Made by a program: the position numbers and the translations under genes. From positions 1 through 26,941 of the forward strand of contig JBDLQS010000054.1 in the NCBI GenBank assembly GCA_039800445.1: a stretch of 26,941 nucleotides of DNA. Reading direction: 5' to 3'. The stretch comes from Actinomycetota bacterium. Lineage in GTDB: Bacteria; Actinomycetota; Actinomycetes; S36-B12; UBA5976. Shown piece after piece: positions 2,831 through 9,006 of the stretch (the first letter of the stretch is position 1; every line of letters begins with the position of its first letter). The notes beneath the pieces were generated by a model, which saw only the letters and a program-made list of their open reading frames with translations, made no database searches and was not told the DNA's origin.

Positions 2831-2836
2831 AACCTA
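2831..2836 (-). promoter_or_regulatory. Candidate -10 element (TAGGTT) of a leaderless promoter; its first three bases are the typA TAG stop
   Basis: - strand TAGGTT-GGTGAG-ATG: TANNNT exactly 6 nt before the start codon. Confidence 0.5.
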
Positions 2837-4705
2837 GTTATTGCGGGCTTTCGTTCGATTACGATCGCGATCAACTTTTGCCAGTGCGACTTTACGGATT
2901 CGCACTGCAGTCGGTGTTACCTCTACGCACTCATCTTCGCGACAGAATTCCAGTGCCTGCTCAAGGCTTAATTGCTTGGCTGGAATTAGACGCTCAAGTT
3001 CATCCCCAGTTGCAGAACGCACGTTCGTCAGCTTCTTTTCTCGAACTACGTTAACGTCCATGTCTTCAGCACGAGCATTTTCACCAATGATCATGCCTTC
3101 GTAAACTTCAGTCGTTGGTGAAACGAATAAAGTGCCTCGCTCTTGTAGGCCAAAGCAAGCATAAGAAGTAACTGCGCCACGTCGATCGGAAACTAGCGAT
3201 CCAGATGGCCGAGTACGTAATTCACCAAACCATGGCTCGTACTTTTCAAAGATGTGATGCATCAGGCCAGTGCCACGAGTTTCAGTAAGGAACTCAGTGC
3301 GGAAACCAATTAGGCCACGAGCTGGAACGATGTATTCCATGCGAACCCAACCCGTTCCATGGTTAACCATTTGTTCTAGACGGCCTTTACGCAAACCTAA
3401 TAGTTGAGTTACCACACCCACATAATCTTCTGGAACGTCGATTGTCAGACGCTCCATCGGTTCGTGAATCTTGCCACCAATTTCCTTGGTCACAACTTGT
3501 GGTTTTCCAACCGTCATTTCAAACTTTTCACGGCGCATAAGTTCGACGAGCACCGCTAGCTGAAGTTCCCCGCGGCCCTGCACTTCCCAAGTATCAGGTC
3601 GCTCTGTCTCAAGTACGCGAATCGAAACGTTTCCAACCAACTCGGCTTCAAGTCGAGTCTTGAGTAGTCGTGCGGTTACTTTGCTACCGGTCTCACCCGC
3701 AAGCGGTGAGCTATTGATTCCGATAGTCATGGAAATTGATGGTTCATCAATTACAAATAGTGGCAATGCAATTGGGTTGTCTGGGTCAGCCAAGGTTTCA
3801 CCGATTGTGATGGTTTCAAAACCAGAAACCGCAATGATGTCACCAGGACCAGCTGAATCCACTGGGATGCGATCGAGAGCTTCTGTCATTAATAGTTCGA
3901 CAATTTTTCCACGCTCAGTTGTGCCATCGGATTTCATCCAAGCAACTTGTTGTCCCTTGTTGATGTTTCCATTGATCACGCGACATAGTGCTAGACGACC
4001 CAAGTATGGAGATGAATCAAGGTTTGTAACGTGAGCCTGAAGTGGAGCCTCTGGATCGTATGTTGGTGCTGGAATGCTTCCAATCAATGTGGCAAATAAC
4101 GGCTCAAGATCTTCTTCATCAGGCATGCCGCCATCAACTGGGCGAGTTAGTGAAGCGCGCCCAGCTTTAGCTGAGGCATAAACGATCGGAAACTGGATTT
4201 GTTCTTCATCCGCATCAAGGTCGAAAAATAGTTCATACGTCTCGTCGACAACTTCTGCGATGCGAGCATCTGGTCGGTCAACTTTATTAATCAGAAGAAT
4301 TACTGGAAGTCGTTTTTGTAAAGCCTTGCGAAGTACGAAACGAGTCTGTGGCAGTGGGCCTTCACTTGCATCAACAAGTAGAACGACACCATCAACCATT
4401 TCTAGGCCGCGCTCGACTTCTCCACCAAAGTCAGCGTGACCTGGAGTGTCAATGATGTTTAGTGTGACGCCACCCGCTTGAGCTGCTGGCCCTACGTATC
4501 GCACGGCAGTGTTCTTTGCCAGGATGGTAATTCCCTTTTCACGCTCCAAGTCCATGGAATCCATGACGCGGTCATTTACGTCTTGGTTTGCGCGGAAAGC
4601 TCCAGATTGCCAAAGCATGGCATCTACGAGCGTGGTTTTTCCATGGTCAACGTGGGCGATGATTGCAACATTTCGAAGGTCGTTGCGGACAGCAGATTGG
4701 GTCAC
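2834..4705 (-). CDS. typA: Translational GTPase TypA/BipA, 623 aa (GTG start)
   Basis: AHVDHGKTTLVD, REKGITI, DTPGHADFGGEVER, NKVD, GRGELQL and the BipA C-terminal EYIEVTP-like ECVEVTPTAVRIRK. Confidence 0.98.
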   Translation of the reverse strand: MTQSAVRNDLRNVAIIAHVDHGKTTLVDAMLWQSGAFRANQDVNDRVMDSMDLEREKGITILAKNTAVRYVGPAAQAGGVTLNIIDTPGHADFGGEVERGLEMVDGVVLLVDASEGPLPQTRFVLRKALQKRLPVILLINKVDRPDARIAEVVDETYELFFDLDADEEQIQFPIVYASAKAGRASLTRPVDGGMPDEEDLEPLFATLIGSIPAPTYDPEAPLQAHVTNLDSSPYLGRLALCRVINGNINKGQQVAWMKSDGTTERGKIVELLMTEALDRIPVDSAGPGDIIAVSGFETITIGETLADPDNPIALPLFVIDEPSISMTIGINSSPLAGETGSKVTARLLKTRLEAELVGNVSIRVLETERPDTWEVQGRGELQLAVLVELMRREKFEMTVGKPQVVTKEIGGKIHEPMERLTIDVPEDYVGVVTQLLGLRKGRLEQMVNHGTGWVRMEYIVPARGLIGFRTEFLTETRGTGLMHHIFEKYEPWFGELRTRPSGSLVSDRRGAVTSYACFGLQERGTLFVSPTTEVYEGMIIGENARAEDMDVNVVREKKLTNVRSATGDELERLIPAKQLSLEQALEFCREDECVEVTPTAVRIRKVALAKVDRDRNRTKARNN

Positions 4706-4798
4706 TGTCCTTATTCTAGTTGAGAAATATCGCGCTAATGAACCACGTAAGCCCAGCCTTTAAGCGCAACGGCTCTAAAGTGGACATGAGGCCAAATC

Positions 4799-5818
4799 AT
4801 GACATCACACCTAAATCCCCCGCGCGCATCCATAAATTTTGTTTGGCAGCACCATAGAAATTACGCCTACATTCAGGAGCAAATATTTGACCTGATTGAA
4901 GCATGTTTGCCTAAGGGAACTGTGGTTCACACGGTTGGTGATGCCGTTGAAGGAGCCTTAAGCCTTTCTTTGTTCATCCGACAGAGTCGCGAGGAGATTG
5001 CTGCCACCCCTGCCGACATTGTGATGGCTCACGGAATTGCGGATAAGCGATACTTCTTTATTGTTGGCGGCGACGACTTACCATTAGTTAACAGTTGTAA
5101 ATACGTGTTTATTCCGGGCGATTGGCACGTTAATCGATTAGTTGAAGGTAGATTTCGTCGTAATCCAAAATATCAATTGACTTTGCAAGATAGCCAAATT
5201 CGCAAGGTGGGTTGGCTAAGACTTGATCCGATGATCGAGGCAACAAAGCGCTTAGCTCCAGCTACACATCGCAGGCTGAAAGTTTTGTGGGCACCAACTC
5301 ATAACACAATTTCAAGCACTAAATCAGACTCAGACTTATCCCCATCAAGTTTTCCAGCATTCAAAAAACATTTACCTTGGCTCTATTTGAAATATCAGAG
5401 TGATGTTTCGCTTCACCCTCGCAATCGAGGAACTAAAACTCCAACAACTGAGAAGTTGATTGCTAGCGATGTCGTCATTTCCGACTTTGGCACAATGGTG
5501 TTTGAAAGTTGGGCGCTTGGTAAACCAGTGATTTTTCCACGCTGGTGTATTGATGTGAAAACCTTGATGGAACGCAATCCACTCAGTGCTGAGGCATATA
5601 TCTATCGCAATCGAATTGGGCTGCACCCAGAAACTCCAAAAGAGATGCATCGAATGCTGCGTGATATAGATCGGATGCGATTTGAAGACCCAAACTTTGA
5701 TTCCCGCGGAACTGGCGTGGCAGAGTTCATTGATCACTACATTGATCCTGCGGAACGTGGTTTTGACGCCAAACGAACTGCACAGGAATTGATTTCAATT
5801 TTGAGTGAGGTCTCGTGA
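4799..5818 (+). CDS. CDP-glycerol glycerophosphotransferase (TagF/TagB-like, GT-B fold) family protein, paralog 1, 339 aa
   Basis: Ordered TagF-family motifs: AHGIADK (cf. HGTPLK), VGWLRLD (cf. GYPRND), VLWAPTH (cf. ILYAPT), LHPRN, SDVVISDFGTMVFESWALGKPVIF (cf. SDxLITDYSSxxFEFxxLxKPxIF). Confidence 0.75.
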   Translation: MTSHLNPPRASINFVWQHHRNYAYIQEQIFDLIEACLPKGTVVHTVGDAVEGALSLSLFIRQSREEIAATPADIVMAHGIADKRYFFIVGGDDLPLVNSCKYVFIPGDWHVNRLVEGRFRRNPKYQLTLQDSQIRKVGWLRLDPMIEATKRLAPATHRRLKVLWAPTHNTISSTKSDSDLSPSSFPAFKKHLPWLYLKYQSDVSLHPRNRGTKTPTTEKLIASDVVISDFGTMVFESWALGKPVIFPRWCIDVKTLMERNPLSAEAYIYRNRIGLHPETPKEMHRMLRDIDRMRFEDPNFDSRGTGVAEFIDHYIDPAERGFDAKRTAQELISILSEVS

Positions 5819-6921
5819 GTGAATCACTTAAACATGACTTAAAACCTGGTGCAATAAATTTTTGTTGGATCTACAGCAAGACATATGCAAATGTGCAAGA
5901 ACAGATTTTTAATCTAATCGAAGCTCAGTTGCCACCTGGTTCAGTAAGTCACTCAATTGAAGATGCAATAGAAGGTGCAGTAAACCTCTCACTATTTATT
6001 CGGCAAGGACGAGAGCTTGAAGATGCGCATCGGGTGCCAGCTGATGTGATTTTGGCTCATGGCATTGCAGATAAGCGTTACTTCTTCACCCAAGATTCAA
6101 CAACGTCACTGCCGCTGGCAAATGAATATGATTTTTTGCTGGTACCCGGTGCTTGGCACGTAAACCGATTGATCGAGGGTACGTACCGAAAGAACCCCCA
6201 CTACCAAATCAAAGTTTTGGAATCGCAAATCAAAAAGGTTGGTTGGTTGCGATTAGATGCATTATTTGAGGAAGCTAAAACTCGGGATAAAGAGCCACAT
6301 CATCGTCTGCGCTTACTTTGGGCTCCGACCCACAACGTAATCCCTCGCACAAATGAGCAAACTGTCGACGCACTTGCGCCATCCAGCCTTCCCGGATTTA
6401 AACCGCATGTTAAGCAAATGGCTGCAAGATACATCTTCCGCGTCTCACTGCATCCGCGAAATCGATCAGATCGAAAGCCAACTGGAAGTCAATTAGTTTG
6501 GTCAGATGTTGTGATTAGTGACTTTGGCACCATGGTTTACGAAGCTTGGGCGCTTGGCAAACCGGTAATCTTCCCGCGTTGGGCTATGGATGTTGACACC
6601 TTGATTAACCGAAATCCATTGAGTGCAGAGTCCTACATTTATCGAAATCGAATTGGTTTGCATCCGGAGTCGCTAGCCGAAATGCAAGACATGCTCGATC
6701 AAATCCAAAGACAGATTATTGGCAATCGTATTACGCGAACTCTGAAGCGATTTACTCGAATCAAGACACATCGCAAGGATGCAAGTGATCTTCGTGGGCC
6801 AGGGGTAAAGGAATTCATCGCGCACTATGTAGATCCTGAACAACAGGGAAACGATGCAAAGCGCACTGCAGATGTCCTAGTTGAAATTGCTAATCTACCT
6901 AAATACCAGAATTCAAAATAG
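5815..6921 (+). CDS. CDP-glycerol glycerophosphotransferase (TagF/TagB-like) family protein, paralog 2, 368 aa (GTG start overlapping the upstream TGA)
   Basis: Same motif set (AHGIADK, VGWLRLD, LLWAPTH, LHPRN, SDVVISDFGTMVYEAWALGKPVIF). Aligns end to end with paralog 1. GTGA overlap at 5815-5818. Confidence 0.75.
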   Translation: MSESLKHDLKPGAINFCWIYSKTYANVQEQIFNLIEAQLPPGSVSHSIEDAIEGAVNLSLFIRQGRELEDAHRVPADVILAHGIADKRYFFTQDSTTSLPLANEYDFLLVPGAWHVNRLIEGTYRKNPHYQIKVLESQIKKVGWLRLDALFEEAKTRDKEPHHRLRLLWAPTHNVIPRTNEQTVDALAPSSLPGFKPHVKQMAARYIFRVSLHPRNRSDRKPTGSQLVWSDVVISDFGTMVYEAWALGKPVIFPRWAMDVDTLINRNPLSAESYIYRNRIGLHPESLAEMQDMLDQIQRQIIGNRITRTLKRFTRIKTHRKDASDLRGPGVKEFIAHYVDPEQQGNDAKRTADVLVEIANLPKYQNSK

Positions 6922-6979
6922 TTCTAAATCACCATAATTCTTGGCAAGTTCTTAACTGTGTGGCAATTAGCATGAATCT

Positions 6980-7870
6980 ATGCGCACTCATCATCTGGTT
7001 CCAGTTGTTACGGTTACTTTTGCCGCACTAATTGCATCAACCATCCAACCTGCGCAGGCAAAATCCTCAGTAACCATCGTTGCTGTGGGTGACATTGCAA
7101 AGTCGCGTGGTGGCCAGGCAAAGACCGCTGCTTTAACAAAAAATTTAAAGCCCCAACAAGTACTGCTTTTAGGTGACTTGGTTTACCAAAGTGGAACAGA
7201 CAAAGAATTTAGAAAGTATTTTCTGCCAAAGTGGAAGAGTCTGCTTTCAAAGAGCTGGGCAGTCCCTGGCAATCATGAATATCGAACTGCAAATGCCGCT
7301 GGATATCGAAATTTGATTACCCAGAATGCAATGCCTGCAACTGGTGAAGATCTTTGGTGGGTTAAACAAACTGGTAGTTGGTCTGTCATCGGATTAGATA
7401 GTGAAGTTTTGACTGGCGCAACAGGCGAAAAGCAAATTGAATTTTTGAAGCAAGCCTTACTTGATAATGATGGCCGTCCAACTCTCGTCACTTGGCATCG
7501 GCCAACATTCTCTCGTGGTCACCATGGAGATCAGACAGACACCGCAAGTCTTTGGAATCTGGTAAGTGCTGATCAAGATGTGAAGTTAGTTTTATGGGCC
7601 CATGATCACAATTACGAACAAGTGGAGCGCACAGTTCAATCTGGTACTGGCATCGAGCGAAAAGTGAACACTATTGTCGTCGGCACAGGTGGCGCTGACT
7701 TGCGAAGGTGCAAGACGCCAAACATTCCTGGTGAATTAATTTGTGGTAAGAAAAACAACTTCGGCGTACTGCAGTTAAAGCTTTCGGAATCTGGATACTC
7801 CTGGTCTTACCGAAATGCCAACGGCAAAAAACTTGGTCGGCAATTAGATAGTGGAAGAGTTAACTTCTAG
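6980..7870 (+). CDS. Secreted calcineurin-like metallophosphoesterase (purple acid phosphatase-like), 296 aa
   Basis: Signal peptide ending AQA|K; metal-binding motifs in order VGD, LGDLVY, PGNHEY, TWHRP, AHDHNY. Confidence 0.9.
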   Translation: MRTHHLVPVVTVTFAALIASTIQPAQAKSSVTIVAVGDIAKSRGGQAKTAALTKNLKPQQVLLLGDLVYQSGTDKEFRKYFLPKWKSLLSKSWAVPGNHEYRTANAAGYRNLITQNAMPATGEDLWWVKQTGSWSVIGLDSEVLTGATGEKQIEFLKQALLDNDGRPTLVTWHRPTFSRGHHGDQTDTASLWNLVSADQDVKLVLWAHDHNYEQVERTVQSGTGIERKVNTIVVGTGGADLRRCKTPNIPGELICGKKNNFGVLQLKLSESGYSWSYRNANGKKLGRQLDSGRVNF

Positions 7871-7942
7871 ATTCAACTAAACGTTGCTAACTCTGAAATT
7901 CAGCAGTGCTTACTGGTTGAATTTAGATTCAACTAAACGTTG
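7868..7942. repeat. Perfect 19-bp direct repeat TAGATTCAACTAAACGTTG (7868-7886 and 7924-7942), 37-nt spacer
   Basis: Read directly. Copy 1 begins at the phosphoesterase TAG stop; copy 2 spans the ychF stop. Confidence 0.95.
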
Positions 7943-7956
7943 AATCTAAATTCAAC
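7916..7956. terminator. Perfect 18-bp inverted repeat with 5-nt loop; probable bidirectional terminator between convergent genes
   Basis: GTTGAATTTAGATTCAAC-TAAAC-GTTGAATCTAAATTCAAC. The right arm is ychF coding sequence (VEFRFN). No long U-tract, so terminator function is inferred. Confidence 0.6.
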
Positions 7957-9006
7957 GACATCCCCATCAGACATGACATACTCTTTGCCTTCCATGCGGA
8001 CTTTGCCCTTTGACTTTGCTTCTGCAACTGAACCAGCTGAAACTAAATCCTCAAAGGCGACAATTTCTGCCTTGATAAATCCTTTTTGAAAATCGGTGTG
8101 GATTACGCCCGCAGCTTCTGGCGCGGTAGCTCCTACTGGGATTGTCCAGGCGCGAGATTCTTTCGGACCAGCAGTTAAATAAGTTTGCAGTCCCAGAGTT
8201 TTGAATCCAACACGAGACAAAATTGCAATGCCACTTTCTTGTTGACCAACTGATTGCAGCAATTCAAGTGCTTCTTCATCGGGAAGTTCGCCGAGCTCAG
8301 CTTCAAGTTTTGCATTCATGAAAACTGCTTCAACTGGCGCCACTAGGGCACTAAGTTCTTGCTGCAAGGCCTCGTCAGTCAGTTCATCTTCATCCAAGTT
8401 GAAGACGTATAGAAATGGCTTCGCGGTCAAGAGAAACAGTTCTCGGATTGGCTCATAATCAAGACCTGATTCAAAAATTGTTTTGCCAGAGTTAAGTATT
8501 TCTACAGCCTTTTCTGCGGTGGCTAAAGATTCAGCTTTGGCCTTATCCAATCGTGACTCTTTGAGAAGTCTTGGCATAGCTTTTTCAAGCGTCTGCATGT
8601 CCGCCAAAATCAATTCAGTATTTATGGTTTCAATATCGTCTTTTGGTGAAATCGCACCATCTACGTGAACTACGTCAGGATCTTTGAAAGCTCTAATCAC
8701 CTGGCAAATAGCCTCAGACTCGCGAATGTTTGCCAAGAACTTATTTCCCAGTCCTTCACCTTCGCTTGCGCCGCGAACAATTCCGGCAATGTCAACAAAG
8801 GTAACGGTAGCTGGAAGGATTCGTTCTGAAGCAAATATTTTTGCCAGTACCGGAAGTCGAGCATCTGGAACTTCAACTACACCGGTGTTTGGTTCAATCG
8901 TGGCAAACGGATAATTCGCAGCCAACACATTATTTTTCGTCAAAGCATTAAAAAGTGTCGATTTTCCCACGTTGGGTAATCCGACGATTCCGATAGTTAG
9001 GGCCAC
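7933..9006 (-). CDS. ychF: Ribosome-binding ATPase YchF (Obg family), 357 aa
   Basis: GIVGLPNVGKSTLFN, NYPFATIEPN, DIAG, GEGLGNKFL and C-terminal TGS domain ending GDVVEFRFNV. Confidence 0.99.
   Translation of the reverse strand: MALTIGIVGLPNVGKSTLFNALTKNNVLAANYPFATIEPNTGVVEVPDARLPVLAKIFASERILPATVTFVDIAGIVRGASEGEGLGNKFLANIRESEAICQVIRAFKDPDVVHVDGAISPKDDIETINTELILADMQTLEKAMPRLLKESRLDKAKAESLATAEKAVEILNSGKTIFESGLDYEPIRELFLLTAKPFLYVFNLDEDELTDEALQQELSALVAPVEAVFMNAKLEAELGELPDEEALELLQSVGQQESGIAILSRVGFKTLGLQTYLTAGPKESRAWTIPVGATAPEAAGVIHTDFQKGFIKAEIVAFEDLVSAGSVAEAKSKGKVRMEGKEYVMSDGDVVEFRFNV

Follow-up and report, generated by a model that had tools for sequence, protein, structure and literature searches.

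TagF-like enzymes carry five active-site motifs and two catalytic histidines and transfer glycerol-phosphate or hexose-phosphate (hexose-1-phosphate) (PMC5974469); group 2 TagF-like capsule polymerases and the CpsA/CpsC transition transferases have also been described (Litschko et al.; PMC5974469, PMC11666461). Here we analyzed a 26,941-nucleotide (nt) stretch of DNA (the window; contig C54) from a metagenome-assembled genome (MAG; 0.96 Mb, 60% complete) of a freshwater Candidatus Nanopelagicales genus. Open reading frame (ORF) calls and family scans placed three co-oriented genes in the gap between typA and ychF, namely two tagF-like genes (tagF1 and tagF2, encoding P0001 and P0002) and a gene for a putatively secreted phosphatase, P0003 (Table 1). 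Few bacteria are as abundant in fresh water as the Nanopelagicales (acI). To our knowledge their wall polymers are almost entirely undescribed, and a literature search on Nanopelagicales together with teichoic retrieved nothing. We consider it reasonably probable that the gap holds an islet of accessory TagF-type transferases, which depend on a separate core pathway, and a functionally separate, secreted enzyme resembling purple acid phosphatases (PAPs).

The assignment of P0001 and P0002 to the TagF/TarL superfamily is well supported, because profile searches, profile alignments and structural models all lead to it, while the specific activity of the two proteins is not well supported. A profile of 57 homologues searched against the PDB with hmmsearch retrieved TarL (8va1, E 5e-9), Cps3D (8qoy, 1e-6) and TagF (3l7i, 2e-4). 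Alignment to canonical PF04464 domains with hhalign reached 98.5% probability (E 2.6e-15, 239 columns) and paired HGiADK with wHGtplK, GwpkLD with GyprID, LWAPTH with LYaPTwrG, the HP histidine with its counterpart and ViSDfGS with LItDySS. The AlphaFold model of the TagF-like protein (predicted local distance difference test score, pLDDT, 93.2; predicted template modeling score, pTM, 0.91) has a GT-B fold, and its Foldseek ranks 1-12 were occupied by TagF and TarL (E ~5e-9, template modeling (TM) score 0.55-0.61), followed by Cps3D and Bcs3. Residues H78, G79, K83, G107, G138, H206 and D229 (P0001 numbering) were invariant across the 57 sequences. Of these, H78 corresponds in the alignment to the histidine of the canonical WHG motif and H206 to that of HP; the remaining motifs also occur, with altered residues. 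The TagF hidden Markov model alignment stops at chain residue 585, which is the HP motif, and of the equivalences to TagF H444 and H584, the numbering link to H444 is one by motif identity and not by residue-level superposition.

Compared with TagF, TarL and TagB (PF04464; 3l7i, 8va1), the window proteins share the GT-B two-Rossmann fold of what are their best structural matches, as well as counterparts of WHGxxxK, GYPRxD, APTWR, HP and DYSS with both catalytic histidines. They differ in consisting of a ~300-residue core devoid of N-terminal membrane-targeting or oligomerization regions, in their altered motifs (HGIADK; APTHN, with the arginine lost; SDFGT) and in that neither TagD nor TarI was found in near-complete relatives of the window genome. 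With the group 2 capsule polymerases (Cps3D/Cps7D; 8qoy) they have in common that Cps3D is matched by both profile and fold, and that the short domain occurs at the N-terminus of proteins of 1,300-1,580 residues with TPR, canonical PF04464 and GT1 domains. In contrast to those polymerases, however, the window proteins are single-domain, come from a Gram-positive-type actinobacterium and are not accompanied by Kps-type export genes. The CpsC transition transferase is of the LicD family, which is fused or adjacent to members of the present subfamily; that the window proteins are equivalent to priming enzymes of the CpsA type is no more than a lead.

The two paralogues are 54% identical, and the motifs HGIADK, GWLRLD, WAPTHN, LHPRN and SDFGTM occur in both translations. 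A Pfam scan revealed no other domain in either protein, and hence no fused glycosyltransferase. Searched exhaustively, 1.84 billion cluster representatives yielded only 189 clusters at E <=1e-3, indicating that the subfamily is small. The first-pass annotation had described these ORFs and motifs, the location of the three co-oriented genes, the lack of fused glycosyltransferase domains and of TagD/TarI or TagGH genes in the window, and an uncharacterized, divergent group of TagF/TagB-type two-histidine phosphotransferases; all of this agrees with our results. In tagF2 we also noted an additional, strongly basic stretch of ~25 residues with many R, K and T (residues ~290-320; window ~6680-6775) and absent from tagF1, which may form an amphipathic membrane-binding helix.

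The genes expected for a complete pathway appear to lie elsewhere in the genome. All four carriers of the islet that are at least 92% complete have a 430-residue canonical PF04464 protein and a 234-residue nucleotidyltransferase encoded at a different location. In G011 the respective cluster (L030:6336-19873, contig C2) encodes an LCP ligase, GT2 enzymes, the PF04464 protein, the 234-residue nucleotidyltransferase, a UDP-glucose dehydrogenase, a Wzm-like permease with a TagH-like ATPase (ABC exporter), an amidase with FlgD-Ig and Fn3 domains, and two proteins of the CDP-alcohol phosphotransferase family, one of them with DUF5941. Not all species of the genus have such a cluster, and the close non-carrier G045 lacks both the canonical PF04464 gene and the 234-residue nucleotidyltransferase. 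Probably this separate cluster supplies donor, acceptor and export, its sole linked donor candidate being the 234-residue NTP_transf_3 protein. Given a core pathway in a separate cluster, the islet genes would attach or lengthen a unit linked by phosphodiester bonds, and surface chemistry would vary accordingly from one close species to another.

In mechanistic terms, tagF1 and tagF2 would be translationally coupled paralogues encoding short, stand-alone and divergent GT-B phosphotransferases of the TagF/TagB/TarL type. They would act at the cytoplasmic face of the membrane, with H78 of the N-domain as the base and H206 of the C-domain holding the donor pyrophosphate. A nucleotide-activated donor would provide the polyol-phosphate or sugar-1-phosphate, which would be transferred to a hydroxyl group on a wall glycopolymer linked to lipid. 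The acceptor polymer would be primed, exported and ligated by the separate cluster, that is, by its PF04464 protein, 234-residue nucleotidyltransferase, TagH-like ABC exporter and LCP ligase. Since single paralogues are kept in some species, the two probably act independently and not as an obligate pair.

The pair had been proposed initially to make a polymer, and it might be a self-sufficient polymerase that builds its own product, e.g., poly(hexose-phosphate), from common UDP-sugars. TagF-like domains are known to transfer hexose-1-phosphate as well (PMC5974469), neither TagD nor TarI was found, and several MAGs with the islet show no canonical PF04464 gene. However, those MAGs are 56-74% complete, and the canonical cluster was present in every carrier of at least 92% completeness. 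Furthermore, the islet has no exporter, primase, TPR or membrane anchor, single paralogues persist alone, and the known polymerases of the superfamily are larger or multidomain. We thus regard polymer synthesis by the pair alone as unlikely, the donor, export and ligation genes of relatives being located in the separate cluster.

Our comparison of 41 species genomes of the genus revealed TagF-like genes in 14 and the phosphatase in 18. Five states of the typA-ychF site could be distinguished: empty or with other small cargo, phosphatase only, tagF2 with phosphatase, all three genes, and tagF1 only. The transferases are limited to one 22-species clade and are missing from close kin whose TypA identity is 98% or higher (G045, G055, G012, G022, and G019), in line with the accessory character proposed for the set. 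In a tree of typA and ychF, the phosphatase-only species (G003, G009, G017, G047, G051, and G052; phosphatases 43-51% identical) belong to deeper clades, indicating that the phosphatase is the older resident; the order contains orthologues of it in further genera and families as well (43-52% identity). Where tagF1 is present, the 60 nt upstream of it are almost unchanged across 8 genomes, and in species devoid of tagF1 this same upstream sequence stands before tagF2. Losses are documented by remnants, since G011 retains only 44 N-terminal codons of tagF1, and G016 has kept tagF1 with the phosphatase reduced to its 21 C-terminal codons. Repeated losses of the islet are also seen on the tree. 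These scars and losses might suggest that the islet genes are decaying remnants devoid of function, an idea that is hardly credible given the intact frames with all catalytic residues in 14 genomes. The ratio of nonsynonymous to synonymous substitutions (dN/dS) among orthologues was likewise low, though with dS near saturation (0.037-0.077, i.e., 0.044 for tagF1, 0.037 for tagF2, and 0.077 for the phosphatase, vs. 0.016 for flanking genes). Where present, the islet genes are under purifying selection.

Regarding the third gene, P0003 matches PF00149 (E 2.9e-14). Its N-terminus, as read from the sequence, begins with a basic n-region and continues with a run of 15 hydrophobic residues leading to AQA|K, consistent with a Sec-type signal; the signal-like residues have pLDDT <50 in the model. 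An exported metallophosphoesterase, as originally annotated, is therefore predicted here as well. Residues D38, D66, Y69 (GDLVY), N98 (GNHE), H173, H208, and H210 were invariant in 40 homologues. Purple acid phosphatases, an enzyme class known mainly as monoesterases, are characterized by this pattern of seven metal ligands (D, D, Y, N, H, H, H) distributed over five motifs. The P0003 profile matched plant PAPs, PPD1 and mammalian TRAP at ~1e-10. In addition, the best Foldseek hits of the model (pLDDT 91) were the rat, human and pig PAPs (TM ~0.70), and the top 30 were all PAPs (E 1e-16 to 1e-11), GpdQ (3d03) and PhoD (2yeq) following at ranks 33 and 42. No PhoD or GDPD domain was found in P0003 by Pfam scan. 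With small (~35 kDa) PAPs (ACP5/TRAP; 1qfc, 1war, 1ute) the protein shares the GDxx/GDLxY/GNHE/H/GHDH motifs with all seven ligands as well as predicted secretion, while differing in its sequence (~20% identity). GlpQ and PhoD of Bacillus subtilis and GpdQ are likewise extracytoplasmic phosphate-releasing enzymes, but the fold of P0003 ranks PAPs first and its distribution at the order level has no link to PF04464. Sequence and model therefore both point to a PAP-like enzyme and not to one of the GlpQ/GpdQ/PhoD type. Source annotations vary among CpdA, alkaline phosphatase and acid phosphatase type 7.

The phosphatase gene may also be expressed on its own. A TAGCAT hexamer lies 6 nt before its ATG, and the arrangement TAnCAT (TA(G/A/C)CAT), 6-7 nt and ATG is kept in 14 of 14 genomes, including the phosphatase-only species (sites in L012-L025 and L122-L130). 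It is likely, judging from this arrangement, that the hexamer is a leaderless-type promoter belonging to the phosphatase, as the first-pass annotation had suspected when it pointed to a separate -10 and a possibly coincidental linkage. A promoter and terminator scan, uninformative in that it gave fewer matches than shuffled controls, predicted no terminator between tagF2 and the phosphatase. Directly upstream of the -10 there is a GTTCTT-N5-GTTCTT repeat with an 11-nt period, kept in a close clade (G001, G007, G041, G044, G046, and G054), which we take to resemble actinobacterial PHO boxes and which would presumably fit control by phosphate starvation. The phosphatase, an older resident of the site with its own probable promoter, most likely releases phosphate from external organic phosphoesters.

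It had been suggested that the three genes form one module for a teichoic acid-like or capsular polymer, with the TagF-like pair as its polymerase and the exported phosphoesterase trimming or recycling the product. The genes are indeed adjacent and co-oriented with no predicted terminator between tagF2 and the phosphatase, and the latter adjoins in 12 of the 14 TagF-like-positive genomes of the genus, although these co-occurrences amount to only 2-3 independent contrasts. Within the genus the phosphatase also co-varies with the PF04464 machinery: among genomes at least 75% complete, 9 have both, one has each alone (1+1) and 17 have neither. This co-variation corresponds to 3-4 independent contrasts, all in one direction (sign test p >=0.25). 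There is also a precedent in PhoD, the sister group of PAPs with a Tyr-ligated Fe3+, for which phosphate release from teichoic acid has been proposed (PMC4223295).

On the other hand, the phosphatase stands alone at the site in six congeners, and G016 has tagF1 with a mere remnant of it. The TAnCAT element is kept even in phosphatase-only species, and the 66 distant TagF-like loci were all free of phosphatase relatives within 10 kb. At the level of the order the distributions disagree. In genus g10, where the phosphatase occurs mostly with no PF04464, 7 of 22 genomes have the former and 2 the latter; in family f7, 54 of 70 genomes have PF04464 and none has the phosphatase. We accordingly rejected the phosphatase as a dedicated teichoic acid enzyme as a general rule, and with so few contrasts in the genus and this mismatch at the order level the adjacency is treated as historical. 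The role of polymer trimmer also fits poorly with a PAP-type fold, neither of the GlpQ/GpdQ nor of the PhoD type, in a class known mainly as monoesterases. Overall, a single build/remodel module is not supported, and we judge it an improbable explanation of the locus. The phosphatase is distributed independently of the TagF-like genes, and at this locus gene adjacency should not be equated with a system. Instead, the locus would be a small flexible islet holding two functionally separate things, whose proximity would be historical and not mechanistic.

A number of relatives outside the genus link the short TagF-like proteins to surface phosphopolymers, as had been anticipated. In about 20 giant proteins (P0133, P0147, P0151, etc.; 1,300-1,580 residues) the short domain is N-terminal and is followed by TPR, canonical PF04464 and GT1 domains. 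Further fusions involve Stealth (P0136), LicD (P0141) and hexapeptide acyltransferases (P0127 and P0139). Among 100 immediate neighbors at 26 taxonomically diverse loci, the commonest were PF04464, LicD, Stealth, TPR, polysaccharide pyruvyl transferase and short-chain dehydrogenases/reductases (SDRs), along with methyltransferases, hexapeptide transferases, NTP_transf_3/IspD, GT2 and GDPD. These families are a phosphoglycopolymer signature. In P0124 the short domain occurs twice in tandem. An apparent typA linkage at 20 distant loci was discarded, the supposed TypA being CysN (27% identical) in a sulfate-assimilation operon.

Phages carry relatives too. Look-alike clusters of the TagF-like proteins in the ESM Atlas are mostly viral, and 54 IMG/VR contigs (L131-L184) encode relatives. 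On one of these contigs, of 58.7 kb, the gene (L135:7836-8966) adjoins a FabG-like SDR gene and lies 3-4 kb upstream of the head scaffold and major head protein genes. Thermobifida phage P1312 also encodes a relative (KT021004.1:21773-22402). It could be argued from such findings that the transferases are phage-derived morons or auxiliary genes that alter the phage receptor (superinfection exclusion). However, the viral relatives are 26-34% identical, compared to ~40% for cellular ones, and both paralogues are older than the 22-species clade. Moreover, no integrase, att-flanked prophage or other phage gene was found in the islet, the G+C content of which is within ~4 points of that of its flanks. 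A phage origin is therefore very unlikely in our view. Somewhat less doubtful, albeit still speculative, is a broader scheme in which short TagF-like proteins constitute a distinct stand-alone class that adds one phosphodiester-linked unit (priming or decoration) to wall polymers in the hands of both bacteria and phages. Gain and loss of the islet would then switch surface chemistry, and with it recognition by phages or grazers, among nearly identical species of this abundant lake lineage, and the PAP-like enzyme might recover polymer phosphate in this genus only.

Several observations weigh against accessory TagF-type transferases served by a separate core pathway and accompanied by an unrelated phosphatase. 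P0001 and P0002 fall under every Pfam and NCBIfam threshold, unlike TagF/TarL/TagB; PF04464 gives 11 bits for P0001 (E 0.21, residues 220-246 only; gathering score 22.1) and no match for P0002, and a single-sequence phmmer search against the PDB returned only noise. The homology to PF04464 is seen at the level of the profile, and homologues ~40% identical do match this family, some being annotated in their sources as belonging to the CDP-glycerol glycerophosphotransferase family. No member of the short subfamily is biochemically characterized. Neither G000 nor four carriers that are 92-98% complete gave a match to TagD (TIGR01518), and near-complete relatives showed no second IspD/TarI-like gene, each genome having one IspD and GlmU. 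As a consequence, a CDP-glycerol or CDP-ribitol donor is not evident. In the MAG of the window itself, which is 60% complete, the canonical wall-polymer cluster, TagD and a second IspD were likewise not found. In soil actinomycete MAGs (L063-L087; e.g., L067:8007-12426) the homologue is a solitary gene in a conserved setting, flanked by sulfite reductase and CysD-CysN-type sulfate-assimilation genes on one side and PPK2 on the other, and glycopolymer genes are absent from the vicinity. Finally, the co-variation of phosphatase and PF04464 described above points the same way, and a lineage-specific link between the phosphatase and a phosphodiester polymer may exist in the genus.

Since the transferases adjoin an older, independently distributed phosphatase, the locus is a case of ordinary surface-polymer variation plus probable phosphate scavenging and not a new three-gene system. 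The analysis also removes an over-reading, as adjacency of these genes is no proof of a system. Close species differ by one or two teichoic acid-type phosphotransferases at a fixed chromosomal spot, which offers a handle on surface microdiversity. Furthermore, because no member of the short subfamily has been characterized and its domain turns up again, both as an addition to giant capsule-type polymerases and in the genomes of phages, a single biochemical characterization would annotate a few hundred sequence clusters.

Table 1. Coordinates of the typA-ychF region in the window and of related features at other loci (locus handle before the colon).
Feature	Position	Strand	Description
typA	2834-4705	-	TIGR01394, 912 bits
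typA/tagF1 divergent intergenic region	4706..4798	no strand	GAGG, Shine-Dalgarno-like, 8-11 nt before the tagF1 ATG; TAAAGT hexamer farther upstream
tagF1 (P0001)	4799-5818	+	339 residues; short stand-alone TagF-like (GT-B) phosphotransferase
tagF2 (P0002)	5815-6921	+	368 residues; paralogue of tagF1; GTG start overlaps the tagF1 stop (GTGA)
tagF2/phosphatase intergenic region	6922..6979	+	GTTCTT-N5-GTTCTT at ~6939-6960; TAGCAT at 6968-6973
Phosphatase (P0003)	6980-7870	+	296 residues; predicted Sec-exported, small PAP-like
19-nt direct repeat	7868-7886 and 7924-7942 (region 7868..7942)	no strand	Read from the sequence
ychF	7933-9006	-	TIGR00092, 427 bits
Giant TagF-like/TPR/PF04464/GT1 loci	L098:11186-15721; L100:12115-16812		
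typA-ychF gaps with other cargo	L026:8813-9524; L028:7014-7663; L029:8634-9284; L021:5289-6674; L023:2082-3312		

The remaining genes of the window encode a solute-binding protein (SBP), DUF6542, ispH, xseA, DUF4245, fumarase, a PhoH-like protein, uppS, a DsbH-like protein, a major facilitator superfamily (MFS) protein, lpqB and mtrB/mtrA. Family scans of all 26,941 nt found no TagD/TarI-type or TagGH-type genes, and no nucleotide activation or export genes were present among the rest, which are housekeeping throughout. In other species the typA-ychF gap contains different small cargo, such as a ~160-residue SRPBCC-like protein, a ~190-residue GNAT acetyltransferase or a ~235-residue SDR, and the site therefore appears to be a general hot spot for small insertions. 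The 19-nt direct repeat is a copy of the last codons of ychF with its stop and the first bases downstream, one copy beginning at the stop codon of the phosphatase. It may be a scar left by recombination, or else a 3' element conserved at this variable site. At the same spot in G045 and G009 (L026 and L019) a fragment encoding the C-terminus of YchF is duplicated.

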